DNA of 64,000 bases from assembly GCA_963792265.1 (NCBI GenBank), contig CAWBVP010000002.1, positions 101,331 through 165,330 of the forward strand, read 5' to 3'. A program made the translations under genes and the position numbers. A model generated the notes under the pieces. That model had not been told where the DNA came from, did not search any database, and was given only the letters and a program-made list of their open reading frames with translations. Every line of letters starts with the position of its first letter. Position 1 is the first letter of the stretch. Shown here in pieces: positions 6,491 to 63,187 of the stretch. The DNA is from an uncultured Gemmatimonadales bacterium. Its GTDB lineage: Bacteria; Gemmatimonadota; Gemmatimonadetes; Gemmatimonadales; GWC2-71-9.

Positions 6491-6495
6491 CGTAG

Positions 6496-23601: not shown

Positions 23602-23668
23602 GATCGAGCTTGTCACTCGGATGCGGCAAAACAACGCGAAACAAGCTGATAGGAACAGTTGCTTCGAC

Positions 23669-23878: not shown

Positions 23879-24385
23879 ATGGCCGGGGAATTCTACATCG
23901 GTGAATCGCTGGTCGGAGAAGGCAACGAAATTGCCCACATCGACCTGATCATCGGCTCGAAGAGTGGCCCAGCGGGCGCCGCGTTCGTGAATGCGCTCGC
24001 CACCAACACCGACGGCTTCAATCACCTGCTGGCCGTCGTCACGCCGAATCTGCCGGCCAAGCCCGACACCGTGCTCTTCAACAAGGTCACGATCAAGGGC
24101 GCCAAGCAGGCGGTGCAGATGTTCGGCCCGGCGCAGGCGGCAGTGGCCCGCGCGGTCGTGGACAGCGTGGCCAGCGGGGTGATCGACAAGGGCAAGGCCA
24201 ACGATCTCTGCATCCTGGTCGGGGTGTTCATCCACTGGCAGGCCGAGAACGACAAGAAGATCTACGACTACAACTATCAGGCCACCAAGGAGTCGATCCA
24301 GCGGGCGCTGCAGGGCAAGCCGACGGTGGATGAGGTGCTGCAGCGGTACAAGGCGCGCGCGGCATCCGTTTGCCAGCGGCGCTGA
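23879..24385 (+). CDS. fae: formaldehyde-activating enzyme
   Basis: [26 protein letters not shown]...VTPNLPAKP...FIHWQA matches Fae. A GGAGG RBS precedes the ATG. Confidence 0.95.
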
Positions 24386-24484
24386 GGGCTGATCGTACAG
24401 TCCCGCTATCCGAGATTTCCACGAGGGGCGGCCCGCTGACGGGGTGCGCCCCTCGTCTTTTAGACACCATCGGAGCATTCACCG

Positions 24485-25409: not shown

Positions 25410-25412
25410 GCG

Positions 25413-30534: not shown

Positions 30535-30558
30535 TGGCCCGACCGGCGTCGCCGTGAT

Positions 30559-31461: not shown

Positions 31462-32225
31462 GCGGCGGGCTGCTGGCGCGGCTGAAGTCCGGGTTGACCG
31501 AGCGGGGGGATTTCGGAGAAGTGCTGTCCTCACCCTGGGCGACGCTCTCCGCCCGGGAAGTGGCGGAACGGCCAGTGTACCTGGAGCGCACCGGCCGGGT
31601 GCGGTTGGGCGACCTCTTCGAGCTCACCGGTGAACCCGGTGGCAAAATCCGCTTCGTCGGCGACCTTTCCAACGCCGATCGCGTGGCCGCCGGACTCACC
31701 GAGGGCGAGGTCACCATAGAAGGAAGCGTGGGCCAGGAAGCCGGCCTGGCGCTCGCGGGCGGATCCCTGGACATCGAGGGCGACGCCGGGCCTCGGGCCG
31801 GCGCGGCCCCGCTGGGCTACAAGCGAGGCATGACCGGCGGGGAGCTGATCGTACGGGGCTCTGCCGGTCCCGAGGCCGGAGCCGGCATGCGCCGGGGCCT
31901 GCTCGTCATTGCCAAGAGCGCGGGCGAGCGCACCGGCCTCGGGATGATCGCCGGGACGGTGGTCGTTCTCGGCACGGCCGGCCGGGAGACCGGACTGTGG
32001 TCCAAGCGCGGCTCGGTTGTCGCTCTGGGCCGGATCACGCCACCGGCTACATATGTATTGGCCTGCACCTATCAGCCCACCGTGCTTCGACTACTGCTCA
32101 GCCGCCTGAGCAGTCGATATGGGCTGGCGGTCCAGCGGAAGCACCTCAACGGTTTCTATCGGCGGTATAGTGGAGACATGGCCGAGCTGGGTAAGGGAGA
32201 GATCCTCGAATGGGTAGCCAAATGA
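31458..32225 (+). CDS. fhcC: formyltransferase/hydrolase complex subunit C (FwdC-like)
   Basis: Intact 255 aa with repeated G-rich beta-helix turns (GSVGQEAG..GGSLDIEGDAG..GGELIVRGSAG). Confidence 0.9.
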   Translation: MSGGLLARLKSGLTERGDFGEVLSSPWATLSAREVAERPVYLERTGRVRLGDLFELTGEPGGKIRFVGDLSNADRVAAGLTEGEVTIEGSVGQEAGLALAGGSLDIEGDAGPRAGAAPLGYKRGMTGGELIVRGSAGPEAGAGMRRGLLVIAKSAGERTGLGMIAGTVVVLGTAGRETGLWSKRGSVVALGRITPPATYVLACTYQPTVLRLLLSRLSSRYGLAVQRKHLNGFYRRYSGDMAELGKGEILEWVAK

Positions 32226-33203
32226 CAACAGTGGAGCCGCAGGTGGAATCCCTCAGAATGAACGAGACCGCCAGCGAAATCGTGGAGAGCATGGTCGATC
32301 AGGCCGACCTGCTTCGGGTCCGCGCATCCCGTCTGCGGAAACGGTGCCCGGATCATCGATGCGGGAGTGGAGACTGATGGAGGGTACGACGCGGGACTCA
32401 TACTGGCTGAGATCTGCATGGGGGGGCTGGGAAACGTGAACTTGGGCCCGCTCCAGATCGGAAGCCAATCCTATCCCGGCGTGATCGTATGGACCGACCA
32501 TCCTGCGGTGGCGTGCATGGCTTCCCAGTACGCCGGGTGGGCAATATCGGTAGGCAAGTTCTTCGCGATGGGCTCGGGCCCGCTCCGGGCCCACGCCCGG
32601 GTAGAGCGCGAGCTGTTCGAGAAGCTGGGATACGAGGAACGCGCCGACGAAGGGGTCCTGGTGCTGGAGACGCGGACCCTACCGACCGAGGAAGTGGTCG
32701 CCTGGGTGGCGGAGAAGGCCCGGTTGCAGCCGGCCCAGCTCACCTTTGTCGTGGCTCCCACGGCCAGTCTCGCCGGCGGGGTGCAGATCTCCGCCCGCAT
32801 CGTCGAAACCGCATTGCACAAGATGGAAACCCTGGGGTTTGACGTGCGCCGGGTGGTGAGCGCCTTCGGGACCGCTCCGCTGGCTCCGCTGGCCAGGAAC
32901 GATATCAGGGCCATCGGACGCACCAACGACTGCATTCTGTACGGGGGACAGGCCCGCTTCACCATCCGGGCCGGCGACTCCGAGCTGGAACAGCTGGCTG
33001 CTCAGGTTCCGGCGTCCGCTTCACGGGACTACGGCACTCCTTTCTATGAGATCTTCCAGCGTTACGACGGCGACTTTTACAAGATCGATCCCCTGCTTTT
33101 CAGTCCCGGAGAGGTATGGCTCACCAGCACTGAGACCGGGACGACTTTCCACGCGGGCCGGCTGAACCCCGAGGTGCTGGAAGCCTCGCTCTACAAACCC
33201 TAA
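32222..33203 (+). CDS. mch: methenyl-tetrahydromethanopterin cyclohydrolase
   Basis: DGGYDAGLILAEICMGGLG, VACMASQYAGW and GRTNDCILYGG. The N-terminal ~45 aa are in another frame, starting at ATG 32222. Confidence 0.9.
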
Positions 33204-33217
33204 TCCAGGAGCATTCC

Positions 33218-34009
33218 ATGCGACGTGGCTCGAGCTGGTTGCTGGTCCCCGCGTTTGCCTTTGCCGCCGGCTGCGGCAAGACCGGCGATAAGGGAGCGGG
33301 GGCTCCTGCGTCCGACACGACGGCGGCGGCAGCGCCGGCGCCGGCCGGCCCGCAAGCGATCGTGACCGTACTCTACAACCAGCCAAAGGACACCGCTGAT
33401 TTCGAGAAGTACTATCGGACGATCCACGTTCCATTGGTCGTGTCGAATCAGGATGACATCGGGTTCACCCGGGCAGACCTGACCCGGTTCACCTCGACTG
33501 CGGATGGAAAGAAGCCGACCTACTACCGCCAGGCTGAGCTCTACTTTCCTTCAATGGAAGCGCTCAAGAAGGGTATCGCCACTCCGGGGTTCGAGAAGGT
33601 GGCCAGCGACCTGAAATATTTTGCCAGTGGCGGCTTTACCGCGATGATCGCCAGCACTACGAATTCGCACGAGCTCGGGACCGCCGATGCTCCCGCCGCC
33701 ATAGTCACGGTCATCTATAAGACTCCTAAGGACACGGCGAAGTTCGAGAAGTACTACGCGGACACCCACTTGCCACTGGTCACCGCGAAAAAGAAGGAAA
33801 TCGGCTTCGAGCGAGCGGAGCTCACCAAGTTTGACTCCAACCTGGACGGCTCGGCCCCGGCGCGTTACCGCCAGGCTGAGCTCTACTTCCCTTCCGTCGA
33901 AGCCCTCAAAAAGGGTATCGCCACTCAAGGGTTCAAGCAGGTGGCGGGCGATCTGGGCAAATTTGCCAGCGGTGGTCTCGACGCGCTGATCGGGGTGGAG
34001 ACGAAGTAG
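33218..34009 (+). CDS. lipoprotein with two tandem EthD-family (TIGR02118-like) domains
   Basis: Lipobox AFAFAAGCGK, followed by two ~100-aa repeats (IVTV[L/I]Y..PKDTA.FEKYY...H.PLV...YRQAELYFPS.EALKKGIAT.GF). Confidence 0.65.
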   Translation: MRRGSSWLLVPAFAFAAGCGKTGDKGAGAPASDTTAAAAPAPAGPQAIVTVLYNQPKDTADFEKYYRTIHVPLVVSNQDDIGFTRADLTRFTSTADGKKPTYYRQAELYFPSMEALKKGIATPGFEKVASDLKYFASGGFTAMIASTTNSHELGTADAPAAIVTVIYKTPKDTAKFEKYYADTHLPLVTAKKKEIGFERAELTKFDSNLDGSAPARYRQAELYFPSVEALKKGIATQGFKQVAGDLGKFASGGLDALIGVETK

Positions 34010-34011
34010 CT

Positions 34012-34881
34012 GTGAAACTGGTTGTCCTTGCAGCTCGGCCGGGTTGGCATACTCGCGAGCTGGAGCGAGCCGCGTCCGAGCGAGGACACCAGGCCGCCGT
34101 GCTACCATACGAGGGGCTGGTCGCGAAGATTGGGCCAGCCCCCGGCCTTCGAAGCCTCCAGACCGAGCTCGACAGCGCTGACGCCGTGCTGGCGCGCATC
34201 ATCCCCTCCGGCACGCTGGAGCAGATCATCTTCCGGGTCGACGCGCTGCATCGGCTGGAAGACCGGAGCGTCCGGGTAGTGAACTCGCCTCGGGCCATCG
34301 AGCGGACGGTCGACAAGTTCTGGACTTCCACGCTCCTCGAGCGCTGTGGCCTCCCCACACCAGAGACCATCGTCTGCGAGAGCTCCGAGGAGGCGTTTGC
34401 CGGCTTTCGGGCGCTGGGCGACGTGATCGTGAAGCCACTCTTCGGCTCCATGGGGCTCGGCATGGTGCGGGTCAGCGACGAGGAAATGGCCTATCGCGTC
34501 TTCCGCACTATCGAGCAGATCCGTGGGGTCTATTACCTGCAGCGAGCCATCGACCATGAAGGGGCGGACATCCGCGCCTTTGTGATCGGCGGCCGCCTGA
34601 TCGGCGCGATCGAGCGCCGCTCCGAGGGGTGGCGGACCAACCTGGCCCGGGGCGGCACGGCCCGAAGCGTATCGTTGACTCCTGAGCTCACCAGTCTCGC
34701 TCTTCGGGCAGCGTCTGCGGTTGGGGCGGAGTACGCCGGGGTGGATCTGCTGACCGGACAGGACGGAATTACGTACGTGCTGGAAGTGAACGGGATTCCA
34801 GGATGGAAGGGATTACAGCAGGCGACCGGACTCGACGTCGCGGGAAGCCTGGTCGATTATCTCGCGCTGCCCCCGCGGTGA
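34012..34881 (+). CDS. mptN: RimK-type ATP-grasp ligase (tetrahydromethanopterin:alpha-L-glutamate ligase-like)
   Basis: Intact 289 aa with VVNSPRAIERTVDKFWT, VIVKPLFGSMGLGM and EVNGIPGWKG. Confidence 0.8.
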   Translation: MKLVVLAARPGWHTRELERAASERGHQAAVLPYEGLVAKIGPAPGLRSLQTELDSADAVLARIIPSGTLEQIIFRVDALHRLEDRSVRVVNSPRAIERTVDKFWTSTLLERCGLPTPETIVCESSEEAFAGFRALGDVIVKPLFGSMGLGMVRVSDEEMAYRVFRTIEQIRGVYYLQRAIDHEGADIRAFVIGGRLIGAIERRSEGWRTNLARGGTARSVSLTPELTSLALRAASAVGAEYAGVDLLTGQDGITYVLEVNGIPGWKGLQQATGLDVAGSLVDYLALPPR

Positions 34882-35727
34882 CCACTCCCGCCGAAGTGGC
34901 GGCCGCCGGCCAACTGGCATGCCTGCTGGAAGTGAGCGCGCCCAAACCGGGGAATGTCTCGCCCGAGCGTCACTTTCACGATACCCGATACGAAGATTTT
35001 CTGGCCAGCGCTGTCGCCATCGGCCCCGCGCTGGCCGAGGCCGGCCGGCAGCCGCTGGGGCGCATCATTCGCCGCGCCGTGGAAGACACCCTGCGTTGGA
35101 CCCGATCCAACACCAACCTCGGCATTGTGCTTCTGCTGGCGCCGCTCGCGCGGGCGGCCCTCGTGGAAGGGGGTACGTTGCGGCAGCGGGTAAGCCGGAT
35201 ACTGACTGAGACGACCGTCGACGACGCGGCCGAAGTATACGCCGCCATTCGTCAGGCGCGGCCGGGCGGCCTGGGGGAATCGCAAGGCAGAGGACGTGGC
35301 CGCCGCGCCTACGGTGCCGCTGCGAGATGCCATGGCGCTCGCGGCAGAGCGGGACGCCATCGCCCGGGAGTACGTCACCGACTTTGCGCTCACCTTCGAC
35401 ACCGGAGTACCGGCACTCCTGGCCGCTCGTCGCGCGGGCCTCCCCTGGACCGACGCCGCGGTGGAAGCCTACCTGACCTTGCTGGAGACTGTCGCCGACA
35501 CTCATATAGCACGTAAGCTCGGGCCGGCCGAGGCAGCAGCGGTTTCCCGCCGGGCACGCGAGGTACGGGCGGCCGGTGGTACTCGGTCCGAAGCCGGCCG
35601 AAAGGCCCTGGCGGGGCTGGACGCCGAGTTGCGCGATCCCCGAAACCGGCGTAATCCAGGTACGACGGCAGATCTCACATGCGCCTCGTTATTCGTCGTT
35701 ATACTTGAAGGTGGATGGGATCGTTAG
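34878..35727 (+). CDS. triphosphoribosyl-dephospho-CoA synthase (CitG)-like protein
   Basis: LLEVSAPKPGNVSP, SNTNLGIVLLLAPL and NPGTTADL. The start is a GTGA overlap. There is a frameshift near 35290. Confidence 0.75.
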
Positions 35728-35737
35728 GAGAACCGCT

Positions 35738-36241
35738 GTGCAGAGCAACTTCCGGGTCCAGGTCAGCAAAGATTATCTGGTATTCGCTTCGGCCCACTTC
35801 ATCACCTTCAAAGGGCATCAGTGCGAGTCGCTGCACGGCCACAACTACCGGGTCGGGGTGGCGGTCGAGGGCACGGTAGATTCGGAGTGTCTCTTCGTAC
35901 TGGACTTCAGCGTGCTGAAGCAGATCACCCGCCAACTGGTGGATGCAATCGACCACAAGGTGCTGTTACCCACCCTCAATCCCAAGCTCGCGTATCGGGA
36001 GGAGGGTGACCGGGTTGCGGTCGACTACTTCGGGCAGCCAACCTACGTGTTTCCTCGGCGCGACTGCGCTCTGATTCCGATTCCTAACAGCACGGCTGAG
36101 ATGCTGGCGCAGTACCTTGGCATCCAGGTGCGGCAGGAGCTGGCCAACCGGGGCTACACCCATCTGACCAGCGTCGAGCTGGAGGTGGAAGAGAACTACG
36201 GCCAATCGGCCACCTACCGGGAAGCGCTCGTCCCCGACTGA
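35738..36241 (+). CDS. 6-pyruvoyl-tetrahydropterin synthase family (COG0720) protein
   Basis: FASAHFITFKGHQCESLHGHNY carries a C-E-x-x-H-G-H motif. The start is GTG with an AGGAG RBS. Confidence 0.85.
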   Translation: MQSNFRVQVSKDYLVFASAHFITFKGHQCESLHGHNYRVGVAVEGTVDSECLFVLDFSVLKQITRQLVDAIDHKVLLPTLNPKLAYREEGDRVAVDYFGQPTYVFPRRDCALIPIPNSTAEMLAQYLGIQVRQELANRGYTHLTSVELEVEENYGQSATYREALVPD

Positions 36242-43571: not shown

Positions 43572-43935
43572 ATGCCGGCAACCAAAGAGACGAACCTACA
43601 ACGAAACCGAAATCAACGAGCGGCTCAAGGAGCTGTCCGGCTGGTATTACGAGGACGGCTGGATCCGGCGGGTGTACAAGACCGATGGCTGGCCCACCAC
43701 GCTGATGCTGGTCAACGCGGTCGGCTTCCTGGCAGAAGCGGCCTACCATCATCCGGACCTGACCGTTACCTGGGGCCGGCTCACCGTGAAGCTCCAGAAT
43801 CATGCGGCCGGCGGAATCACCGACAAGGATTTCGAGCTGGCCCGGAAGATCGAGGAGGTCGTTCTTTGGCGTCCCCAGGGTGGGGCGCTCGAGGGCACGC
43901 CCAACAAGTGGGTGCGACCGGGGGATCCGAGATAG
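43572..43935 (+). CDS. pterin-4a-carbinolamine dehydratase
   Basis: EINERLKELSGW and EAAYHHPDLTVTWGRLTVKL. AAGGAGG RBS. There is a frameshift just after the ATG. Confidence 0.8.
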
Positions 43936-45355
43936 TCGCTCCCCCCGCCGGGTCCTCTTCGTAACCGGCACCCTGGCGGAGCCGGCGCTCCGGCGGGTGC
44001 TGGCCGACATGCGGCCTCCCTTCGAGGCGCCGGTCGCGGTCTTGAAGATCACCGTGGCTGCGCTGATGACCACTCCCTGGATTGCCAAACATCTGGAGGT
44101 GCCGCCAGAAACCGATCTCGTCCTCATTCCGGGGCTCTGTGAAGGAGATCCCGGCATCCTGATCGACCGGTTCGGGGTAAAGGCAGAGAAAGGGCCCAAG
44201 GACCTGCGCCAGATTCCCCATTACTTCGGCCAGGCTCAGGCAGCGCCGGATTACGGCAGCTATGCGATCGAGATTCTGGCCGAGATCAACAACGCGCCAA
44301 AGCTCCCACCCGCCCAGTTCAGAGCCGCCGCCAATTACTTCCAGGCCAGCGGTGCTGATCTCATCGACATCGGTTGTACTCCCGGCGTTCCTTTCCCCCA
44401 GCTGGGCAACCTGGTGCGCGAGCTGCGCCAGGCCGGAATGCGGGTCAGTGTGGACAGCTTCGATCCCGGGGAAATTGTCAGCGCAGTGGAAGCCGGGGCG
44501 GAGTTGGTCCTCAGCGTAAACAACTCCAACCTCGAGGTGGCCCGCCAGCTCGGCGGCAGCGAGACCCGGGTGGTGGTCATCCCCGACTTCGGCGAGGGGC
44601 TCGACACTCTCGACCGCAGCATCGAGGCGCTGGAGCGGTGGAACGTTCGCTACCTGATCGATCCCGTCATCGAGCCGATCGGATTCGGGTTCATGGCCTC
44701 GCTGGAGCGGTACGCCGAGGTGCACCGCCGGTACCCGACGTCGGCGCAGCTGATGGGTGTCGGCAACATCACTGAGCTTACCAGTGCCGACAGCACCGGG
44801 GTCAATGCCGTGCTGCTGGCGATCTGTGAGGAGGTGGGCGTCCGCGCGGTCCTGACCACCGAAGTGATCCCGTGGGCCCGGGGCGCGGTGCGGGAGATCG
44901 ATATCGCTCGCCGTCTCATGCACTACTCGGTGAGCCATCGGACCGTCCCCAAGGGTGTAGACGACCGGCTGCTCACGGTGAAAGACCCCGAGATCCTCGA
45001 GTGGGACGAGGCCGAGCTGCGCCGGCTCCACGCGGCAGTCCGGGATCCCAACTTCCGGATCTTCGCCGATCGGCAGACCATCACCGTCTTCAACAACGAG
45101 ATCTTTGTCCGCGGCACCGACATCCAGGAGATCTTCTCCCAGTTGGGAGTGGACGAGGCCACTCATGCCTTCTATCTGGGCCGGGAGCTGATGAAGGCCA
45201 AGTTGGCGATCACCCTGGGCAAGACCTACCGCCAGGAGGGGGCTCTCACTTGGGGCTACCTCACCCCACCAGATGACGTGAAGTCGGAGCACGTCAAGCT
45301 GACCCAGCGGTCGCGAAGAAAGCGGGCAGGCGCTCCTCCGGCGGATGGAGGATGA
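43908..45355 (+). CDS. dihydropteroate synthase-like pterin-binding protein (H4MPT biosynthesis type)
   Basis: VLFVTGTLAEP, GADLIDIGCTPG, the DHPS barrel, and a C-terminal DUF4346-like domain. The start is uncertain because a C6 run at 43941-43946 lies between the frames. Confidence 0.8.
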
Positions 45356-46893
45356 AGCCGGGGTACGCTCCGCTGGTCGAGCCCTTGGGCGAGACCGCTG
45401 AGCCCGCGGAGGTCTGCGCCCGCTTCCTGGATCTTCCTTACCTTTTTTTCCTCGACAGCGCGGCCATGCACCCCTATCCGCGCCGGCCGCAGGAGGAGCG
45501 GCCCACCGGAGACCTCGAGCAGTACTCCTTCCTTTCTGCCGACCCCGTCGCTCTCGTTCGAAGCAAGGGCAGCGTCACCGAGATGCGGCAAGCAGCGAGC
45601 ACCCCGTGGATCACCGTCCCTGGGGACGCGCTCACCGTGGCCCGCGGACTGCTGCCCCAGGAGCCATTGGCACCGGTGTCCGGGGTTCCACCATTTCAGG
45701 GCGGATTGGCCGGCTACATCGGCTACGACTGGGGTGCGGTGCTCGAACGTCTGCCGCGAACCCGGTATGACGATCTCTCGATCCCCGATGTTGTGCTGGG
45801 ACTCTATGACTGGGTGATCGCCTGGGACCACCGAATCGGGACCGCCTGGCTGATCTCGACCGGCCTGCCGGCCACCGGAGCGGAGCGGGAGCCTCGGGCG
45901 CGCAAGCGGATGGATCTGGTGCGCGAGCGCCTGGGTGGACGGGTGGCCAAGCCAACAGTTGAACCGGCAAGGCCGCCTGGAGTCGCGCCACCTCTTCCCG
46001 GAGATTCCCCCGCCCCGTCGTACCCAGTCAAAGGGATCGTGGGCGCCCGCGAGATCGGACTGCGCTCGACCTTCACTCACCAGGACTACCTCGACGCCGT
46101 TGGCCGGGTGAGGGAGTACATCATCGCCGGAGACATCTTCCAGGCCAATCTCTCCCAGCGGTTTCAGACCGGGTTGCCCGAGAAGCCGTTCGATCTCTAT
46201 CGGCGGCTGCGCCGGCGCAACCCTGCCCCCTTCGCCGCCTACCTCGACTACGGCGACATGGCCATCCTCAGTGCTTCACCGGAGCGCTTTCTTCGGCTCG
46301 ACGAACAGCGGCGGCTGGTCGAGACCCGGCCGATCAAGGGCACCCGCCCTCGCGGACTGGGGCCGATGCACGACGCGGCGCTGGGCCGGGCGCTGGCGGA
46401 GAGCGAGAAGGACCGCGCGGAAAACGTGATGATTGTGGACCTGCTGCGAAACGATCTCTCCCGGGTCTGCCGGGCGGGAACTGTTCGCGTCCCGGAGCTC
46501 TTTGCTCTGGAGCACCATCCCACGGTGCACCATCTGGTGTCGACCGTGATCGGTGAGCTGGAGCCGGGCGCCCAGGCGGCCGATTTGATCCGGGCGGCGT
46601 TCCCCGGCGGCTCGATCACCGGCGCGCCCAAGGTGAGAGCGATGGAGATCATCGCTGAGCTGGAGCCGACTCAACGGGGGGTGTACTGCGGCTCAGTGGG
46701 ATACATCAGCGTCACTGGCGCGATGGATACCAGCATCGTCATTCGTACCTATCTGGCGCTTCGGGGGCAGGTATACTTTCAGGCCGGCGGCGGGATCGTG
46801 GCCGATTCCGATCCGGAGCTGGAGTATCGGGAGACGCTCGACAAGGCCCGGGGGTTGATCGAGACGTTAGTTGAGAGTCCGCGAATCAGATGA
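45352..46893 (+). CDS. pabB: aminodeoxychorismate synthase component I
   Basis: Intact 513 aa with SPERFLRL, PIKGTRPRG, GGSITGAPK and AGGGIVADS. Confidence 0.9.
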   Translation: MKPGYAPLVEPLGETAEPAEVCARFLDLPYLFFLDSAAMHPYPRRPQEERPTGDLEQYSFLSADPVALVRSKGSVTEMRQAASTPWITVPGDALTVARGLLPQEPLAPVSGVPPFQGGLAGYIGYDWGAVLERLPRTRYDDLSIPDVVLGLYDWVIAWDHRIGTAWLISTGLPATGAEREPRARKRMDLVRERLGGRVAKPTVEPARPPGVAPPLPGDSPAPSYPVKGIVGAREIGLRSTFTHQDYLDAVGRVREYIIAGDIFQANLSQRFQTGLPEKPFDLYRRLRRRNPAPFAAYLDYGDMAILSASPERFLRLDEQRRLVETRPIKGTRPRGLGPMHDAALGRALAESEKDRAENVMIVDLLRNDLSRVCRAGTVRVPELFALEHHPTVHHLVSTVIGELEPGAQAADLIRAAFPGGSITGAPKVRAMEIIAELEPTQRGVYCGSVGYISVTGAMDTSIVIRTYLALRGQVYFQAGGGIVADSDPELEYRETLDKARGLIETLVESPRIR

Positions 46894-47564
46894 TCCTGCT
46901 AATCGACAACTACGACTCCTTCGTCTACAACCTCGCCCGTTATGTACGTGAGCTGGGCGAAACCCCGCTGGTTCGGCGGCACGATGCCATCGACGTGGAC
47001 GAGATCCTCGGCCTGAGCCCGTCGCACATCATCATCTCCCCTGGACCTTGCTCGCCCAACGAGGCCGGGATCTCTACCGAAGTCGTCCGCCGGATCGGGC
47101 CCCTGATACCGATCCTCGGCGTGTGTCTGGGCCACCAGTGCATTGGAGCCGCCTACGGAGGAGCTATCCTGCGCGCAGGCCACCCCATGCACGGAAAGAC
47201 TTCCCGGATCCATCACTCTGGCACCGGATTGTTCTCCGGGCTCCCCAGTCCTTTCATAGCCACCCGGTATCACTCCCTGGTCATCGCGCCCGGGTCGGTA
47301 CCGCCCAGCCTGGAGGTGACGGCGACGTCGGAAGACGGGGAGATCATGGCGGTCCGCCACGTGAAGCACCCAGTCTACGGGGTACAGTTCCACCCCGAGT
47401 CGGTATTGACCGAGCACGGTTACCGTATTCTCGACCACTTCCTCCATGGCGTGCCTGCCAGCCCCCGGCCACTTCCCGAAGGGGCCGATGGGGTCCTTCT
47501 ACCCCGTCGCTTCGACAGCAGCAGCCTGGCCACCAACCCCCCGCCGGTTGACCTGGTTCGGTGA
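46890..47564 (+). CDS. pabA: anthranilate/aminodeoxychorismate synthase glutamine amidotransferase component
   Basis: MILLIDNYDSFVYNL, GVCLGHQ and GVQFHPES. Confidence 0.9.
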   Translation: MILLIDNYDSFVYNLARYVRELGETPLVRRHDAIDVDEILGLSPSHIIISPGPCSPNEAGISTEVVRRIGPLIPILGVCLGHQCIGAAYGGAILRAGHPMHGKTSRIHHSGTGLFSGLPSPFIATRYHSLVIAPGSVPPSLEVTATSEDGEIMAVRHVKHPVYGVQFHPESVLTEHGYRILDHFLHGVPASPRPLPEGADGVLLPRRFDSSSLATNPPPVDLVR

Positions 47565-48106
47565 TCGTCGAGACCATCGTGACCACGAGGGACACCCAGG
47601 GGGCCATCAACTTTGCCCCCATGGGAGTGGAGTGGGGCGATGAGACCATTGTGCTGAAGCCGTTTCTGGAGACGACCACCTTTCGTAATCTGAGCGCCAC
47701 CCGCGCCGCGGTCGTCAACCTCACCGACGATGTCATGCTCTTCGCTCAGGGAGCGATCTCGAGTCCCCAGTTTCCCTCGTCCCCGGCCCGCGTGGTTAGT
47801 GGCGTTGTGCTCGAGGCCGCCTGCTCCTGGCGGGAGCTCGAGGTGCTGCAGATCGACGCCACTCCGCCGCGCTCTCGCATCGAGACCCGAGTGGTGCACC
47901 GGGGAGTGCGCCGCGAGTTCATCGGGTTCAATCGGGCTCGCCATGCGGTGCTCGAGGCCGCCATCCTGGCCACTCGTACCCACCTGATTCCGCCGGAGCA
48001 GATCCGGGAGGAGTTCGCCCGACTCCAGGTCATCGTGGACAAGACCGCCGGGCCTCGGGAGCAGGAGGCGATGGAGCTCCTGACCCAGTATGTCCGATCG
48101 CACTAG
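47561..48106 (+). CDS. DUF447 family protein of H4MPT clusters
   Basis: Intact 181 aa with IVTTRDTQGAINFAPMGV. Confidence 0.7.
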   Translation: MIVETIVTTRDTQGAINFAPMGVEWGDETIVLKPFLETTTFRNLSATRAAVVNLTDDVMLFAQGAISSPQFPSSPARVVSGVVLEAACSWRELEVLQIDATPPRSRIETRVVHRGVRREFIGFNRARHAVLEAAILATRTHLIPPEQIREEFARLQVIVDKTAGPREQEAMELLTQYVRSH

Positions 48107-49065
48107 CATTTTCGTCGAGGCTCCTGCCCGGCTGCATTTCGGGGTGCTCGATCTGCGCGGCCGGCTGGGGCGCTGTTTCGGCGGCCTCGGCGCGGCGATT
48201 CCCAACCCTTCATTACTGCTGGAAGCCCGGCCCTCGGCTCGGGTCTCGGCCGAAGGACCCGACGCCGAGCGGGCTACCGAATTCGCCAACCGGTTTCTTG
48301 CCTTCCATCGCCTGCAGCGGCGGCGTCCACCTGGTTCTCCACCGCACCATTCCCGATCACGCCGGACTCGGCTCCGGAACGCAGTTGGGTCTCTCGGTCG
48401 GCCGCGCCATCGCCGAGTTGCGCGGCCTCCCACCGGACCCGGTGGAGCTGGCCCGGGCTACCGGCCGGGGCCGGCGGTCGGCCATAGGAACCTGGGCCTT
48501 TGCGCTCGGCGGGTTCATCGTGGAGGGTGGCCGGCAACCGGGCTCGGATCGGCTGGCGCCGCTGCTGGCGCGCTTTGCCATTCCGGAGAGCTGGCGCTAC
48601 GTGGTTGCGGTGCCCGCCGGCGGCAGGGGCCTGAGTGGTGAGGCCGAGGCGCGAGCGTTCGAGCAGCTTCCCTCTCCGCCGGACCGGGAAGTCGAGCGGG
48701 TCTCGCACCTGGTGCTGATGCAGCTGCTCCCTGCGCTGGTGGAGGCCGACCTGCCCAGCTTCGGGGCGGCACTGTCGGAAATTCAACGGGTGACCGGCGC
48801 CTGGTTTGCGGCCCAGCAGGGCGGAGTCTTCGCTCCCGGACCGACGGCGAGGCTGGTAGCCGATCTGGCCGAGTGGGGCGCGGCAGGGGTGGGGCAGAGC
48901 TCCTGGGGTCCGGCCGCCTACGGGCTGGTCGAAAACGACGCCCAGGCCGAGGCGCTGGCGGACCGGGCTCGGCGGGCCCTGGGGTCTACCGGTCGGGTTT
49001 TCGCAGGGGGATTTGCGGCTCAGGGAGCCCGGGTTTGGACCGGTCCGGCAGGCTCCCCGAACTGA
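48090..49065 (+). CDS. mptG: beta-ribofuranosylaminobenzene 5'-phosphate synthase (GHMP kinase fold)
   Basis: APARLHFGVLDL and IPDHAGLGSGTQLGLSV. There is a frameshift near 48300. Confidence 0.8.
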
Positions 49066-49094
49066 TTGACAGTTCATTTTTCAGGGTGTATACT
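49066..49094 (+). promoter_or_regulatory. consensus sigma70 promoter TTGACA-N17-TATACT
   Basis: The -35 is at 49066-49071, starting one base after the mptG stop, and the -10 is at 49089-49094. It lies 580 nt upstream of the xoxF ATG. Confidence 0.55.
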
Positions 49095-49674
49095 GACCCC
49101 TCTAAGCCTCCCGTAATTGGCGACTTGGCAGGTTTCAAGACCCGGCCGGGTCTTGCGCTATTGATCTCCGCTCGTTGCGGGACGGAACCAAAAAACGCTG
49201 TAGCGGCATGGCCGGTTGGCATGCTGTCTCCCCAGTTGCAGTTCTTTACTGACGGACAAGGGTCGAGCGGCCTCCCCTGAGGGATGTAATGGGTTTGCTC
49301 CCGTTTGCTGCCACCATTTCGTCGATGCTGGAACCGCTGGCCGGACGTACCTTGGCGGCCAGGAGATTCGTATACCCACCAGTGCAGGTCTTTCGACGGT
49401 CCCTCCCGGTCCACCACTCTCCGGTCCCATTCTCAGTCTCGCGCGATCGATCCGCACTCTGCTGATCGCGCCTCCCAATCCATCCAGCGGGATTCGCTCA
49501 GGCGTAGTACTTCAGGACCGGGGCCACGCTCCGCCGATGGATGCTTCCGACCGTCGAGCGCGGGCCTCCGGCCACCCTCTGCGTTTGAAGTCGGTATTCG
49601 CAGCACGAGGCATAGAATCACTCACGTGGAATGTTAGTAAAGCAGGAGAATCACCCTTTTCCCTGAGGTCAGTT

Positions 49675-51487
49675 ATGAACCGTTTTGCGCAGAAGGTGGT
49701 GTCTGGCGGGCTCGCTGCGGGTCTCTCGGTAGCCGTAGCGATGTCAGCCAGCGCCCAACAGGCGCGGTCGGGGGCTTGGACCCTGAACGCGCCCGAGGGC
49801 GAATGGCACATGACCGGTCGTGATTACAGCCTGCAGCGGTTCAGCCCGCTCAAGCAGATCACGACGTCGAACGTGGCCGAGCTCCGGCCCGTCTGGTCGT
49901 TCTCGACCGGGACGCTTCGGGGGCACGAGGGCAATCCGCTCGTGATCGGCAACGTGATGTACGTGCACACGTCCTTCCCGAACATCGTGTACGCGCTCGA
50001 TCTCTCCAAGCCCGGCGCGCCGCAGATCTGGAAGCACGTGCCCAACCAGTCGCCCGACGCGATTCCAATCGCGTGCTGCGACCTGGTGAACCGCGGGACC
50101 GCCTATCACCCGAGCGGCAAGATCTTCATCCAGCTGCTCCAGGGTGAGCTGCTCGCGCTCGATGCCAAGACCGGCAAAGAGCTGTGGAAGGTCAAGAACG
50201 CCGACTACAAGCAGGGCTCGACGATGACCAACGCCCCGATCGTGATCAAGGACCTCGTCATCGCCGGTATCTCGGGCGGTGAGTTCGGCGTCCGCGGCCG
50301 CGTGACGGCGTACAATGTCAACGACGGCAAAGAAGTCTGGCGCGGCTATAGCACCGGGCCGGACAGCGAAGTCCTGATCGAGGGCGACGCCAACGCCAAC
50401 TATCCGTCCCACAAGGGCAAGGACCTCGGCGTCTCGACCTGGCAGGGTGATGAGTGGAAGCGGGGCGGCGGCACCACCTGGGGCTGGTACTCCTACGACC
50501 CCGAGCTGAACCTCTTCTACTACAGCACCGGCAACCCGGGCACCTGGAACCCCGACCAGCGGCCGGGCGACAACAAGTGGTCCATGACCATCTTCGCCCG
50601 CAACCCGGACAACGGGCAGGTGAAGTGGGCCTATCAGATGACGCCGCACGATGAGTGGGACTACGATGGCGTCAACGAGAACGTCCTGTTCGAGAGCGGT
50701 GGCAAGAAGCTGCTGGCGCACTTCGACCGTAACGGCTTCGGCTACACCCTCGACCGCACCACCGGTAAGGTCCTGGTCGCGCAGCCCTATGGTCCGGTCA
50801 ACTGGGCCAAGCGGGTCGATCTGACCACCGGCGTGCCGGAGAAGGATCCGAAGTACGGCACCACCGCGAAGAAGAACACCGAGGGCATCTGCCCCGCGGC
50901 GATCGGCTTCAAGGATCAGCAGCCGTCGGCCTACTCGCCGATGACCGGCCTCTTCTACGTCCCGGCGAACCACATCTGCATGGACTATGAAGGCGTCGAA
51001 GTGAAGTACACCGCCGGTCAGCCGTACGTCGGCGCGATCGTGCGGATGTTCCCGGGCCCGGGCGGTCACCGTGGCAATTTCATCGCCTGGGATCCGATGA
51101 AGGGCAAGGCGGTGTGGTCGAACAAGGAGAACCTCGCGGCCTACGGCGGGGCGCTCACCACGGCGGGTGGCCTGGTCTTCTACGGCACCATGGAAGGCTG
51201 GCTCAAGGCGCTTGACCAGAAGACCGGCAAGAGCCTGTGGCAGTACAAGACCCCGTCGGGCATCATCGGCAACCCGATGACCTACAACGGTCCCGATGGC
51301 CAGCAGTACGTGGCCGTGCTCTCCGGCATCGGTGGCTGGGCCGGCATCGGCGTAGCCGCCGGCATCGGCGCCGAAGATCCGACCGCCGGTCTGGGCGCGC
51401 TGGGCGCGTTCGGCGACGCGGGTAACTTCAGCAACCAGGGTGGCGTGCTGACGGTCTTCGCGCTCAAGAATCACGGCAATGAAGTAA
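49675..51487 (+). CDS. xoxF: lanthanide-type PQQ methanol dehydrogenase
   Basis: Signal peptide, vicinal cysteines in PIACCDLVNRG, and HDEWDYDGVNE, where the Asp two residues after the catalytic Asp marks XoxF rather than MxaF. The in-frame stop is missing, so the end is approximate. Confidence 0.95.
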
Positions 51488-51502
51488 GCGGTAACCCGGC
51501 AG

Positions 51503-51529
51503 GGCTGGAGGTTTCCCCTCCAGCCTTTT
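51503..51529 (+). terminator. intrinsic terminator-like hairpin after xoxF
   Basis: GGCTGGAGG-tttcc-CCTCCAGCC followed by TTTT. Confidence 0.6.
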
Positions 51530-51646
51530 ACCGGGATACATTACAGGAAGTGAGAGACGGCGCCGGGCAGCTGTTCGCTCCGGCGCCGTTCTTGTTCCAC
51601 TGCCGGAGGGACTTGCCGGTGGTACCCGCTGGCTGGCCCCTCCCAC

Positions 51647-52544
51647 GTGACTGTTCGATGTCCTGCATCGCTTCCGGCTCGCGTCTCGCTGGTCCTTGGG
51701 CTAGCCTGCGCCTGCCGCTCAGCTCTGCCGGCTCAGGCGCTGCGGCCCGCGTCCAGCAGCCTGGGGTCCTCCGGGTCTGCGCCGACACGGACAACATGCC
51801 GCTTCTCCAACCAGAAGGGCGAAGGGTTACGAAAAGAAGATTGCCGAGCTGATCGCCAAGGACTGGAAGTCGAAGATCGAGTACGCCTGGTGGCCGGTCC
51901 GGCGGGGCTATTACCGGGCGCTGAACGGCACCTATTGCGACGTGATCATCGAATCCCCCGCCGGGCTGGACAGGCCGGCGTCACCAAGCCGTATTACCGC
52001 TCCGGCTATGCCTTCGTCAGCCGCAAGGGAGAGCGGCTTCGAGGACATCAAGTCGCTGGCCGATCCCCGGCTCAAGAAGCTCAAGATCGGAGTCAATATG
52101 TTCGACTCCGACGACGGCGAGAACTCGCCGCCGGCAATGGCCCTCAGCCGCTACGGCGTGGTCGGCAACCTCCGGGGCTACAACACCTCGTATGACCGAG
52201 AATATCCGGCCCGAAGACATCATCAACGGGGTGGCCAAGAAGGACATCGACGTGGCGATCGTCTGGGGGCCGATGGCCGGCTACTTCGTGAAGAAGGCCT
52301 CGGTGCCGCTGGTGCTCACCCCGCATCGCGGCCGAGCAGGGATTCGGCCACCGGCTTTCCCATGCAGTACAACATCGGCATGGCGGTCCGGCGCCAGGAT
52401 AAGGCGCTGCGCGACAGCCTGCAGACTCTGCTCGACCGGAGAGCGCCCGACATCCAGGCCATTCTGAAAGCAGCTATGGAGTCCCGGTTATTCCCCTCGA
52501 AGACCGAGGCGCCAGCGGATTCAGGACGCGCGGCTAAACCCTGA
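51647..52544 (+). CDS. xoxJ: XoxJ/MxaJ-like periplasmic binding protein
   Basis: Signal peptide, LRVCADTDNMP, TKPYYRSGYAF, VAIVWGPMAGYF and QYNIGMAVR. It is spread over at least 4 frames. Confidence 0.75.
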
Positions 52545-56971: not shown

Positions 56972-57484
56972 ATGCGACTGACGGCCCCGGCGCTCCTCCT
57001 CCTGATGTTGGCCGGGTCACCGGTGTTGGCAGCTGCTCAAGAAGCCGGAGTGCCCCGACCGGCCTTTCGCTTCAGCCGTGAAGCCGGCCAAACCTTGGGT
57101 GCACTCTGGCGAGCGAGCCTGGCGGCACGGGAGGAGCGAGTCGCCTGCCTGGCCAGCTCCATTCGCAACGACACCGTTTTCGTCTCCCAGGTCGCCCCGC
57201 TCGACCCTGAAGACGCCGACTCGATGGGAATCTCAGCCACCGCGTCCGTCGACAAGTGCGGACCGCCTGAGTGGTCGGGGACGGTTCATACCCACATCGC
57301 CCTCTACACCGACGACCGCCCGTCCACCCGGTTCTCCGCCCAGGATCGGACCGCCATGCGGCTCTGGTACGACCGCTGGCACGCCGACGGCGTATTCTGC
57401 CTGATCTACAGCGAGCATGACGCGCACTGTGAGGCCGACGGGGTCGTCGGAGGGATGCGCTCCACTCCTCGTATTGTGCGCTAG
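56972..57484 (+). CDS. secreted JAB(MPN)-like protein, paralog 2
   Basis: Signal peptide ...PVLAAAQE, ERVACLA, and GTVHTH-x13-SAQD. It shares PLDP..ADS.GISA.AS..CGPPEW and ADGVFCL.YS with paralog 1. Confidence 0.5.
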   Translation: MRLTAPALLLLMLAGSPVLAAAQEAGVPRPAFRFSREAGQTLGALWRASLAAREERVACLASSIRNDTVFVSQVAPLDPEDADSMGISATASVDKCGPPEWSGTVHTHIALYTDDRPSTRFSAQDRTAMRLWYDRWHADGVFCLIYSEHDAHCEADGVVGGMRSTPRIVR

Positions 57485-57494
57485 ACTGCGGGCC

Positions 57495-58007
57495 TCAGGA
57501 TAGCGGACGGCGGGACAGAAACGACCGGGGGTTTCGCCGGGCCAGCAGGCGGTCCAGCCCCCAGGTGCGCCCCGCCCGGGCAAAGAAGAACGCCAGCATC
57601 AGGAAGAAGAGCACCAGATGAAAGCCCTGCTGCCCCGGCGACATCCATTGGGTGGCCAGGCCGTAGTTGATCACCAGCAGGAGCCCCACCAGGGAAGCCA
57701 GCCCGGTCAACAACCCCAGCGTCAAACCGATCCCGGTAACGGTTTCACCCCAGGCGGTCAGTTGGGCAAAGATGCTGCTGTGGGTGAGCACGGTTCCGTC
57801 GAGGAATTGTTTGTAGAGCACCAGCGGGTTTTCCGAGGCCTGTTTGGCCACGATCTTGGGCATGACCGTGAGCCAGCGCTCGGAGACGGCGGGCAGAGGA
57901 ACGATGCCGCCCAGCAGCACGATGGTCATCTTGGTCACCAACGACTTCACGAAATAGAGACCGACCACGATCCGCAACAGGGCCAGCCACTCGGCGGGAT
58001 GAGCCAT
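57495..58007 (-). CDS. DoxX-family membrane protein
   Basis: 4 TM segments. The sequence LLRIVVGLYFV...LTAWGETV is DoxX-like. Confidence 0.65.
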   Translation of the reverse strand: MAHPAEWLALLRIVVGLYFVKSLVTKMTIVLLGGIVPLPAVSERWLTVMPKIVAKQASENPLVLYKQFLDGTVLTHSSIFAQLTAWGETVTGIGLTLGLLTGLASLVGLLLVINYGLATQWMSPGQQGFHLVLFFLMLAFFFARAGRTWGLDRLLARRNPRSFLSRRPLS

Positions 58008-58115
58008 GGTGACGCTGGCGGGTCGAGAGATTCTGAGCCATTGATATGGGCTATGCGCTATGGGCTCTCCAGTCGCAGGCGCAGCCCATAGCATGACCAT
58101 AGCCCAGCACTCTAG

Positions 58116-60155
<2,040 letters not shown>

Positions 60156-60170
60156 CTGGTGGCGGAGCTT

Positions 60171-61251
60171 CTAGTCTCCCAGACTGATGCCCAGTTCCCG
60201 CGCGGTGGCGATCGTGTCCGAATCGAGGGGGACGTTCTTCGAGCGGCCCACGACCTCTTCCAGTGGGACCTGCTCGATGCCGGGCCCTTTGAGCCCCACC
60301 ATCACTCCGAAGACTCCGTCGGCGATGGCGCGCACCGCCGCCGCGCCGAACCGAAGGGCCAGCAGCCGGTCATACGTGGTGGGAGATCCACCACGCTGCA
60401 AGTGACCCAGAACAAGGGTACGGGTTTCTTTGCCAGTATGATGCTCGATGGCTCGGGCAACTTTGCTGGCAATGCCACCCAGCCGGTCCACGGTGCCGGG
60501 ACCCCGGCGCTCTAGCAGTTCAATGTCGCCGTCCTTCGACCGGGCGCCTTCCGCCACCACGACAATGCTGAACCGGCGGCCGGCCGCCTCCCGGCTCCGG
60601 ATCTTGGCGCAGACCTTCTCGATGTCGAAGGGGATTTCGGGAATCAGGATGACGTCGGCGCTGCCGGACAGTCCGCTGTAGAGGGAAATCCAGCCGGCGT
60701 ATCGCCCCATGAGCTCCACGACCATGACCCGGTCGTGGCTTTCGGCGGTGGAGTGCAGCCGGTCGATGGCCTCGGTGGCCGTGCTGACCGCCGTGTCGAA
60801 GCCAAACGAACGCTGGGTGCCGCTGACATCGTTATCGATCGTCTTGGGAACGCAGACGACCGGAAGGCCCTTCTTCCAGAGCTCGTAGGAGATCTGCAGG
60901 CTGCCATCGCCGCCGATGGAGACCGAGGGCGTCGAATCCGCTGGCCTGGAACGCGGCGACCAGATCGTCGGAGCGATCGATCTCGCGCTCCGGGCCCTCT
61001 GGGTCCCGGCTGACGTAGCGGAAGGGATTGCCCCGGTTGGTGGTACCGAGGATGGTACCGCCGAGGTGGGTAATGCCGCGCACTTGGGCCGGGCCGAGTG
61101 GCACGACCCCGTCGAAGCTGAGCAGGCCCTCGTACCCGCGCTGAATCCCGTAGGACTGCCATCCGCGATGATGCGCCGAGAGCACGACGGCGCGAATGAC
61201 CGCGTTCAGTCCAGGGGCGTCACCGCCCCCGGTTGAGATGGCAATGCGCAT
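60171..61251 (-). CDS. pfkA: ATP-dependent 6-phosphofructokinase
   Basis: MRIAISTGGGDAPGLNAVIR, GGDGS (shifted), VVELMGRYAGW and LGHLQRGG. There is a frameshift near 60800. Confidence 0.85.
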
Positions 61252-61254
61252 GGG

Positions 61255-61491
61255 TCACTTTGAACCTCTCACCCGCTCGATTGCCTTCAAGACCTCACCC
61301 GGCTCGGCGTGCCGCCTGGTCGCCTTCTTGGAGAACACGAGTGTGCCGTCCACCGTCACCTCGAACACGCCGCCGGAGGACTCGACCAGCCGGACCTGAG
61401 CGTCGGGATAGGCCTGCTTCAGCTCAGCCGCCAGACCGGCGGCTCGGGGCTTGTAGTTTCAGACAACGCAATACTGAATCGTCACATGCAT
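61255..61491 (-). CDS. SelW/SelT/Rdx-family selenoprotein (CxxU) with in-frame UGA
   Basis: My translation is MHVTIQYCVV-U-NYKPRAAGLAAELKQAYPDAQVRLVESSGGVFEVTVDGTLVFSKKATRRHAEPGEVLKAIERVRGSK. The UGA is at 61461-61459. The stop lies 3 nt before the pfk ATG. This gene is absent from the ORF track. Confidence 0.7.
61426..61444 (-). promoter_or_regulatory. bacterial SECIS-like hairpin
   Basis: AGCCGCC-GGUCU-GGCGGCU begins 14 nt after the UGA. The GGUCU apical loop resembles the E. coli fdhF SECIS loop. Confidence 0.5.
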
Positions 61492-61630
61492 CTGTACCAC
61501 GCTCGCTTTGCGGAGGATGCAGCAGGACCGCCGCGAATCGTAGTGGCCGGCGGGAGAGATGCCAAGGGCGAATGCGGGCTGTGACGGCGCTCCTTGTCAG
61601 GCTCATCCCATAGCCGTATCTATTTGAGCC

Positions 61631-63187
61631 ATGCTGACCTACCGACACCCCTGCGGGGGTTTGGCCCGGGTGCTGCTGCTCCTGGGCGCTCTTGTGTTAT
61701 ATGCCTGGCCTCGCCCACTCGGCGGCGGCCCAGGAGCGGCGCTATCTGTTCGAGGTCGGCGCCGCGGGTGCCTACCGGGCTTCGGGTCGATCGACTGATC
61801 TGGGCGGCGCGGCCGGTGGATTGGGCCGGATCGGCGTGTGGCTTCCGCTCAATTTTTCGTTTGAGGGCGGAAGCCTCCACCGCGAGTCCCAAGGCCAAAG
61901 ACCCGCACTCGGGGTCGGCGTCAAGACCGCTGTCGGTATCGGCCCTCTACAATCTCCCGCTGGGAACCAGAACTGGGCCTACGCTAAGCTGGGAGTCGGG
62001 GAAGACCCGGTATGGCAAGGATCCTTGCACTACTCCGACCATCTGCGGGACAGCCAAACCGATCATAGCGGGCATCGGCTTTCGACTCGCTCTCACCCCA
62101 CTGGTGATGGCGCGCGCCGAAGCCATGATGAACTTCAACAAAACCACCAGCGATACCGGAGTTGCTCCGGCCCGACGCTCAGTAACGACGCGCTTCACCA
62201 ACTACGGCCTCAATCTCGGCCTGAGCCTGATGTTGGGCAGCAAGCCACTCCCCGACAGCGACGGTGACGGCGTACCCAATACCCGGGACCGCTGCGCCAA
62301 CACGCCGCTCGGAGCTCAAGTCAACGAGTTCGGCTGCCCTCTCGACAACGATAGTGACGGCGTGCCCAACGGGATCGATCGCTGCCCCAACACGCCGATC
62401 GGCGCCACGGTGGATCCGACCGGCTGCACTCGCGACAGCGATGGGGACAACATTCGCCGATGGCATCGACAAGTGCCCCGATACACCTGCCGGAGTGCTG
62501 GTTGATGCGCGCGGGTGCCCCAAGGACAGCGACGGTGATGGCATCCCCGACGGCCTCGACCGCTGCTCCGATACGCCCAAGGGCGCTACGGTAGACGCGC
62601 TCGGTTGCCCGGGTGACGAAGACGCCGATGGAGTACTCGACGGACTCGATCGCTGCCCCCGAACTTCGATCGGGGCCACGGTAAATGCCTACGGGTGCCC
62701 GGTGGGACAGAGCGGAAGGCAACCGGCCAATGCACCGGCGGCCCCGCCACCGACTGCCCAACCACCCACTGCCCCCGCCGCCACCCCCGATACGTCGGCC
62801 CAGGCGAGAGCGGCGCGGGCAGCGATGGGGCAGCCCAATGGTCCTCTGGTGCTGGAGGGCGTGACCTTCGAGTCGGGTAGCGCCCGCCTGCAGTCCGGCT
62901 CCTATGTGGAGCTCGATTCTCTGGCCAAGGTGCTCATTGCCAGTCCGCGCATGAGGATCGAGATCGGCGGTCACACCGATAACTCGGGGTCGCCGGCAGA
63001 CAATCAGCACCTGTCAACGCTGCGGGCCGAGGCGGTGCGCAACTATCTGGTGGCCAAGGGGGTGCCGTTCCAGCAGATGGTCGCTCGAGGCTACGGATCC
63101 ACCGTGCCCCGCACCCAGGATACCACTCCCCGCGGGCGCGCGGCCAACCGCAGAGTCGAGATCAAGCCGATATCGTCCGGCCCTTGA
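61631..63187 (+). CDS. OmpA-family outer-membrane protein with thrombospondin type-3 (DxDxDG) repeats
   Basis: Signal peptide, a beta-barrel-like N-terminus, at least 6 DSDGDG.PD..D.CP.TP units, and an OmpA C-domain (GHTDN.G....N..LS..RA..V, NRRVEI). There are about 3 frameshifts. Confidence 0.8.

Follow-up and report, generated by a model that had tools for sequence, protein, structure and literature searches.

Bacterial SelW-like proteins, which carry the PF10262 domain and a CxxU motif (U, selenocysteine, Sec), outnumbered every other selenoprotein family in the Sargasso Sea metagenome, where they account for 48 genes (PMC1088965), and the family was rated as 'predicted with high confidence' in a 2026 review (PMC13188914). 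Few cysteine (Cys) homologs of these proteins occur in Sec-using organisms and Sec is held to be the ancestral state (PMC1794560); the function of the bacterial family is unproven (PMC1088965, PMC13188914). A stretch of 64,000 nucleotides from contig CAWBVP010000002.1 of an uncultured Gemmatimonadales bacterium (hereafter, the window) contains a gene, here called selW, which shares with the described bacterial SelW-like selenoproteins the same domain and length, the N-terminal CxxU and a selenocysteine insertion sequence (SECIS) that lies within the open reading frame (ORF) and has a G in a small apical loop. It is considered, at a probability of about 0.93, that positions 61491-61255 (minus strand) encode a 78-residue SelW-like (Rdx) selenoprotein of Gemmatimonadales, in which the UGA at codon 11 is read as Sec by means of this hairpin. 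As such, selW is an ordinary and typical addition to a SelW-like family that has been known since approximately 2005. The features that define the predicted gene are as follows.

61255 to 61491, minus strand: selW-like selenoprotein coding sequence, 78 codons including the predicted Sec11, plus the TGA stop
61459 to 61470, minus strand: CxxU redox motif, TGC GTT GTC TGA = Cys8-Val-Val-Sec11, by direct reading
61426 to 61444, minus strand: predicted bacterial SECIS hairpin inside the coding sequence, 7-bp stem AGCCGCC/GGCGGCU and loop GGUCU, from covariation in 81 sequences

On the minus strand, the frame opens with ATG at 61491-61489, has the TGC codon of Cys8 at 61470-61468 and the in-frame TGA of codon 11 at 61461-61459, and closes with a TGA stop at 61257-61255; the translation is MHVTIQYCVV, then codon 11 (read as U), then NYKPRAAGLAAELKQAYPDAQVRLVESSGGVFEVTVDGTLVFSKKATRRHAEPGEVLKAIERVRGSK up to the terminal stop. 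The coordinates and motifs given for the gene in the original prediction, which had been made from the sequence of the window (78 codons, C-V-V-U and the TGA at 61461-61459), were all found to be correct on re-reading. The ORF track was also said to miss the gene over the TGA of codon 11, and the ORF list indeed has no entry for selW, because the first ATG, GTG or TTG in this frame past the TGA does not appear until codon 41 and leaves fewer than 40 codons. The description of selW as a hidden selenoprotein is appropriate for ORF callers only, since the family is well known and truncated homologs have already been labeled by the Joint Genome Institute (JGI).

Membership of the Rdx/SelW family was examined by profile searches in which Sec was written as Cys. 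The selW protein matched Pfam Rdx (PF10262) at 81.2 bits (cut-off 22.6), TIGR02174 (CXXU_selWTH) at 70.4 bits (cut-off 34.2), and NF041051 (SelT/SelW/SelH) at 104 bits (cut-off 88). The Rdx match extends over residues 2-72 of the 78 and takes in both the first strand (beta1) and the CxxU motif. Among solved structures, 2fa8 is the closest in sequence (E = 5e-11), and 2oka, 2obk, 3dex, 2ojl, 2p0g, MIEN1 and mouse SelW were also matched.

The fold was checked by proxy, using the AlphaFold model of P0005, a natural Cys-form homolog that is 63-69% identical to the selW protein. This model has a mean predicted local distance difference test score (pLDDT) of 86.8 and comprises a strand at residues 2-8, a helix at 14-27, three further strands, and a helix at 66-74. 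Its best PDB match is again 2fa8, with a template modeling (TM) score of 0.89, followed by 2obk, 2oka, 3dex, 2ojl, 2p0g, MIEN1 and mouse SelW, and thioredoxins rank only after these SelW-related proteins. The solved Rdx proteins that were compared, namely Agrobacterium tumefaciens Atu0228 (2fa8), Pseudomonas fluorescens 2obk, Streptomyces avermitilis SAV_2001 (3dex), mouse SelW (2npb) and MIEN1 (2ljk), have TM scores of 0.68-0.89 to the P0005 model and share its beta-alpha-beta-beta-beta-alpha order, with CxxC/U after beta1. The bacterial members among the solved proteins have CxxC and approximately 100 residues, whereas the selW protein has 78 residues and a predicted Sec. In P0005 the CxxC/U motif is located between beta1 (2-8) and alpha1 (14-27). 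As judged from this homolog model, the predicted selW product has a thioredoxin-like fold (beta1-alpha1-beta2-beta3-beta4-alpha2) with C8-x-x-U11 between beta1 and alpha1. Hence the proposed assignment to the Rdx/SelW family is upheld by all three profiles and by the fold of a close homolog.

The UGA codon was then compared across related loci. A scan of one genome per species gave 80 loci (designated by L-numbers), all from other species and most of them from Gemmatimonadales metagenome-assembled genomes, with some from Acidobacteriota, Planctomycetota, Myxococcota, Methylomirabilota and others. The codon aligned with codon 11 of selW is TGA in all 80. In the eight codons preceding this TGA, the variability at the first, second and third codon positions is 0.16, 0.13 and 0.38, respectively, and the downstream codons show the same pattern; variation that is biased toward the third position alike on both sides of the TGA indicates that both sides are translated in one frame. 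TGA is at the same time the commonest ordinary stop in the window, where it ends 26 of 42 long coding-like ORFs as well as selW, so that this codon has not been generally recoded.

The hairpin, which was predicted to have a 7-bp stem and a GGUCU loop and to start 14 nt past the UGA, is present exactly in that form. On the minus strand, its 5' arm occupies 61444-61438, its loop 61437-61433 and its 3' arm 61432-61426; the 7-bp stem is perfect, and the stretch encodes R-A-A-G-L-A-A. An ungapped alignment of 81 sequences was used to examine covariation, with 500 column shuffles and sliding of the 3' arm by 1-3 columns as controls. In the 7-pair helix, 93.8% of cells are paired and compensatory double changes occur in five of the seven pairs (n = 81); none of the 500 shuffles matched the observed values, and only 17-59% of cells were paired in the slid controls. 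Examples of compensatory change include GCCATC/GATGGC in L010 (encoding A-I-G-L-M-A), GCGGTC/GACCGC in L074 (A-V-G-L-T-A), and GCCTCC/GGAGGC in both L050 and L079 (A-S-x-L-E-A). These changes in the stem alter the encoded amino acids and yet preserve pairing, which argues for selection on the RNA structure. In addition, the second loop position is G in 81 of 81 sequences.

A consensus model of the bacterial SECIS (bSECIS), taken from the legend of Fig. 2 of PMC13188914, has a loop of 3-9 nt, an upper stem of 4-16 bp, a minimum free energy (MFE) not above -7.5 kcal/mol, a G within the first two loop positions in the pattern N1-G-[G/U]-N-N2, and a spacing of 16-37 nt between the UGA and the loop. 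The selW hairpin, with a loop of 5 nt and a stem of 7 bp, lies within these limits; its loop G-G-U-C-U fits the pattern, with N1:N2 as a G.U pair, the UGA-to-loop spacing is 21 nt (61458-61438) and identical in all 81 sequences, and the MFE for the 42 nt from the UGA is -16.9 kcal/mol. When all in-frame TGAs in the window were scanned for coding-like flanks and a bSECIS-like hairpin, three sites were obtained, and only the one at selW had a redox motif. The view that this hairpin is a functional-looking SECIS was therefore borne out with respect to both covariation and all elements of the model. An extended lower stem, which was seen in the MFE fold, was rejected, as the consensus fold gave no support for it.

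One point of comparison is the SECIS of Escherichia coli fdhF, likewise an in-ORF hairpin directly past the Sec UGA with GGUCU at its apex and a comparable spacing. The fdhF sequence TGA-CACGGCCCATCGGTTGCA-GGTCT-GCACC has matches of 100% identity in 5413 records that carry the annotation fdhF. The shared loop had been pointed out correctly in the original prediction, with the pentamer lying 18 nt past the UGA in fdhF versus 21 nt in selW. The two stems have no sequence similarity, that of selW being a perfect, G+C-rich 7-bp helix, and the loop register differs by 1 nt, since the loop of fdhF is closed by an A-U pair and that of selW by C-G or G.U. A further difference is the bulged U of the fdhF SECIS, which has no equivalent in the selW hairpin.

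Several observations weigh against the reading of codon 11 as Sec. First, no selA, selB, selD or tRNA-Sec gene was detected in 913 kb of sequence, made up of the window and the flanks of the 80 loci. ARAGORN found no tRNA-Sec in the window or in any of the 80 loci, a Pfam search of window ORFs away from the selW neighborhood (30 ORFs, each of 225 codons or more) revealed no SelA, SelB or SelD product, E. coli SelA, SelB and SelD as tblastn queries had no match in the window or the 80 loci, and crude motif scans of the same sequences for SelA and SelD were likewise negative. Nothing relevant to Sec use in Gemmatimonadetes/Gemmatimonadota was found in the literature searched, including the text and supplements of an ISME J 2016 survey. 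With regard to the hairpin, 17 of the 81 sequences have an A-C mismatch at one stem pair, and the 42-nt fold is only moderately stable relative to shuffled sequences (z = -2.1, 10 of 200 shuffles being as stable); because single-sequence stability is only moderate, the argument for a SECIS is carried by the comparative evidence. There was also no Rfam family match, either in the whole window at the gathering threshold or in 61380-61500 at E <= 10; short in-ORF SECIS elements of the SelW-like family may not be modeled in Rfam. Finally, at least two 1-nt indels occur in conserved genes near selW, and base-level accuracy is thus imperfect, though none of these lies inside selW.

In the course of the ARAGORN search, a tRNA-Gln(CTG) was called at 18797-18869 (minus strand), inside the long coding-like ORF 17846-19240. 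Rfam gave no tRNA match at this site, either at the gathering score or at E <= 1, and the call is probably a false positive.

The indels are relevant to one alternative, in which a TGC codon has been turned into TGA, whether by faulty sequencing or assembly or by a recent nonsense mutation, and the gene is an ordinary CxxC Rdx gene or a pseudogene. Insertions of 1 nt relative to several orthologous loci are present nearby, at 60923 in pfk (6-phosphofructokinase, PFK) and at 62453 in an OmpA-like gene, and a Cys-form homolog (P0005, CVVC) exists. The pfk gene is split into two ORFs, 60832-61251 and 60171-60725, by one extra base at 60923 relative to L001, and the intact pfk frames of orthologous loci show the same 1-nt offset; deleting this base gives a PFK of 359 amino acids that matches TIGR02483 at 436 bits and PF00365 at 348 bits over its full length. 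The insertion is either an assembly indel or the mark of a recent pseudogene. The OmpA-family gene, which has thrombospondin type 3 repeats, lies divergent from selW at 61631-63187 (plus strand) and is spread over two or three reading frames at the least; one of the shifts is explained by an insertion of 1 nt (62453-62456) in comparison with L001, L002 and L051, which suggests that the assembly contains indel-type errors. However, the nearby errors are indels and not substitutions, selW aligns to L001 without gaps, and the covarying hairpin lies at the canonical distance from the codon. Above all, a TGC-to-TGA error is excluded because TGA is found in all 80 independent assemblies of related species, so that this alternative is effectively refuted. 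Orthologs with TGC and no conserved hairpin, which had been named as evidence that would count against a selenoprotein, were not found among the 80 loci; instead, the codon is invariant and the hairpin covaries.

Public protein data bear on two further alternatives. The closest 120 homologs in a public protein collection (P0001-P0120) were collected, and ten sequences of 70-93 amino acids, which are full or near-full length, were examined. Most of the 120 are ORFs of 54-59 amino acids that start at TTG, GTG or ATG past the TGA, and many of these short proteins are named 'selT/selW/selH-like putative selenoprotein', which is a JGI label. Such calls, together with the failure to find Sec machinery in the window and the locus flanks, would be expected if the UGA were a true stop and the product were a peptide of 10 residues or else a shorter protein with its start further downstream. 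We regard this as very improbable. Both beta1 and CxxU fall within the part matched by the Rdx profile (residues 2-72); the eight upstream codons show third-position bias, and I5, Y7 and C8 are invariant in the full-length homologs. Moreover, the frame in the window has no ATG, GTG or TTG before codon 41, and a shortened protein would lose beta1 and the redox center of the fold.

Among the ten full or near-full-length homologs, W occupies the Sec position in eight, and the other two read CVVC (P0005) and CVTR (P0008), so that C-x-x-(W/C) is present in nine of the ten, the exception being the Arg of P0008. The W-bearing proteins sometimes also show W at the terminal TGA, and W at these two positions is a signature of gene calling with a code-4-type genetic code in which TGA is a sense codon. 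Taken together, the truncated ORFs of 54-59 amino acids and the full-length calls with W, which make up most of the remaining close homologs, indicate that the homologous genes contain an in-frame TGA as well. The NCBI-derived P0008 has AARLAA in place of AAGLAA in addition to CVTR in place of the Sec motif, and its lineage may have lost Sec. The alternation between Cys and Sec that was originally expected at this position is nearly absent among close relatives, being limited to the one CVVC and the one CVTR protein among the ten. This scarcity matches the few Cys forms of the known SelW-like family and agrees with the view that Sec is ancestral in SelW-like proteins (PMC1794560).

It might also be supposed that the UGA is read through as Trp or Cys, either by a near-cognate tRNA or, for Cys, via the Sec pathway at low selenium, since several metagenome gene calls give W at this codon and the Sec machinery of the genome was not observed in the window or the locus flanks. 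This, too, has little probability. The W calls are alternative-code artifacts, as the same proteins end in W at the stop TGA, and ordinary stops in the window are mainly TGA. Near-cognate read-through needs no SelB-type hairpin with an invariant loop G that is conserved across phyla, and the CxxU/CxxC chemistry by which the family is defined would be lost with Trp as the redox residue. On this indirect evidence from the sequences, there is hardly an explanation other than Sec decoding for a UGA that is present in 80 species, in a frame constrained on both sides and with a covarying SelB-type hairpin after it.

For the selenoprotein reading, the following course of events is proposed. The UGA at codon 11 would not act as a stop; the hairpin in the coding sequence, with its loop 21 nt downstream, would serve as the SECIS and recruit SelB-GTP-Sec-tRNA(Sec) to the ribosome, whereupon Sec would be inserted. 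The product would presumably be a thiol-dependent oxidoreductase that cycles between the selenol/thiol and the selenenylsulfide forms via C8 and U11. Transcription would probably start from a conserved sigma-70-like promoter approximately 46 nt upstream, and selW would probably be translated together with pfk, which begins 3 nt downstream. The corresponding features around selW are as follows.

61537 to 61565, minus strand: promoter-like site, TTGGCA-17 nt-TACGAT, about 46 nt upstream of the selW ATG, by sequence match
60171 to 61251, minus strand: pfk (6-phosphofructokinase), starting 3 nt past the selW stop, broken by a 1-nt insertion at 60923
58116 to 60155, minus strand: prolyl oligopeptidase family gene, 15 nt past pfk (PF02897 and PF00326)
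57495 to 58100, minus strand: DoxD-like membrane protein gene, 15 nt past the peptidase gene (PF04173, 30.6 bits)

The promoter-like site is the sole sigma-70-like match in 57300-61900. Its hexamers and their close flanks (CTTGGCATC and ACTACGATTC) are invariant in nine related Gemmatimonadales loci, and the surroundings vary; selW is probably transcribed from this site. Within the intergenic region between selW and the OmpA-like gene (61570-61650), two further blocks, GGCTCAAATAGATA and CTGACAAGGAG, are invariant across nine related loci, the former adjoining the start of the divergent OmpA-like gene. They may represent a divergent promoter, its leader, or the site of a regulator.

As originally noted, the selW stop is separated from the pfk ATG (61251) by 3 nt, the spacer being CCC, and no terminator-like site was found between the two genes. 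The tight linkage is not confined to the window: pfk directly follows selW on the same strand in 58 of the 80 loci, all 58 of which belong to Gemmatimonadota, and the gap is between -10 and +22 nt in 53 of these 58, most commonly 1 nt (16 loci) or 3 nt (11 loci). From this spacing and adjacency, we infer that selW and pfk are co-transcribed. The prolyl oligopeptidase gene, which is collinear with L002, L003 and L051, and the DoxD-like gene possibly belong to the same transcription unit as pfk, as judged from spacing only. In the literature searched on bacterial SelW-like proteins, neither the Gemmatimonadota lineage nor a site directly before pfk is mentioned, and the conserved selW-pfk pairing is possibly a small addition that is unreported in that literature.

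Production of a SelW-PFK fusion by read-through was also considered, as the TGA that ends selW in the window shares its frame with the pfk ATG, and a G+C-rich hairpin, CCGGGGGCGGUGACGCCCCUGG, located 29 nt past the selW stop (about 61205-61226, minus strand), nominally passes the bSECIS limits. This candidate was rejected: selW ends with TAG or TAA in 14 of the 58 loci and the gap length varies, so that the frame relation is not conserved, and the hairpin sequence codes for GGGDAPG, a conserved motif of PFK.

Other genes follow selW in some of the remaining loci. In five loci from Acidobacteriota/Thermoanaerobaculia (L065, L067, L070, L076 and L077), an NAD kinase gene, identified by PF01513 and PF20143, lies after selW at a gap of 49-107 nt (approximately 6260-7200 in each locus); such an arrangement was not found in the literature searched. 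A DEAD-helicase-like protein of 852 amino acids is encoded after selW in L026 and L050, and a cytochrome c assembly protein in L064. In L075, a proline dehydrogenase gene overlaps selW by 4 nt.

Elsewhere in the window, a cluster of tetrahydromethanopterin-linked one-carbon (C1) genes was observed at 23273-36241 and 43790-51852, with the following members and a dehydrogenase dependent on pyrroloquinoline quinone (PQQ).

23273 to 24385: Fae
28788 to 30164: Amidohydro_3 protein
30535 to 31461: FTR
32262 to 33203: MCH
33880 to 34881: RimK-like ATP-grasp protein
35510 to 36241: PTPS
43790 to 45355: DUF6513/pterin-binding protein
49204 to 51852: PQQ-dependent dehydrogenase

The C1 cluster and the PQQ-dependent dehydrogenase point to a methylotrophy-type metabolism in this Gemmatimonadales genome.

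The gene order raises the question of what the SelW-like protein might do. PFK and NAD kinase are both GGDG-motif kinases that govern the supply of NADPH, PFK via the partition between glycolysis and the pentose phosphate pathway, and NAD kinase via the NADP pool. The placement of selW thus weakly suggests an action on kinases that control NADPH supply. One conceivable, though rather unlikely, role would be that of a dedicated redox partner of the adjacently encoded metabolic kinase (PFK in 58 loci and NAD kinase in five), with a selenium-dependent switch that would set a regulatory Cys of the kinase to the reduced or the oxidized state according to the oxidative load. In the linked PFKs (n = 57), a search for conserved Cys pairs revealed only one well-conserved Cys, which is found in an EKVCAKI context in 53 of the 57 and corresponds to Cys214 of the repaired window PFK (about 60610, minus strand); this is a possible redox-sensitive site. 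A second Cys (residue 133, VVCVPKT) alternates with Gly, 29 versus 28.

A lead from mammals is the report that mouse SelW binds pyruvate kinase M2 (PKM2) and changes glycolytic flux (PMC10943047). Mammalian SELENOW belongs to the same family, and the bacterial selW is genetically coupled to another glycolytic kinase; the SELENOW-PKM2 and selW-pfk cases differ in partner enzyme, organism and type of evidence, and the likeness serves as a lead only. If true, the redox-partner role would for the first time give the bacterial SelW family a concrete function and would echo the relationship between mouse SelW and PKM2.

With respect to annotation, selW and its homologs are systematically missed, shortened to 54-59 amino acids, or given Trp in public gene sets. 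The predicted selenoprotein implies that a selenoprotein gene with Sec decoding is maintained in members of Gemmatimonadales, a lineage common in soil, and the coupling of selW with pfk, and with the NAD kinase gene in another phylum, provides a testable hint at the function of bacterial SelW-like proteins.

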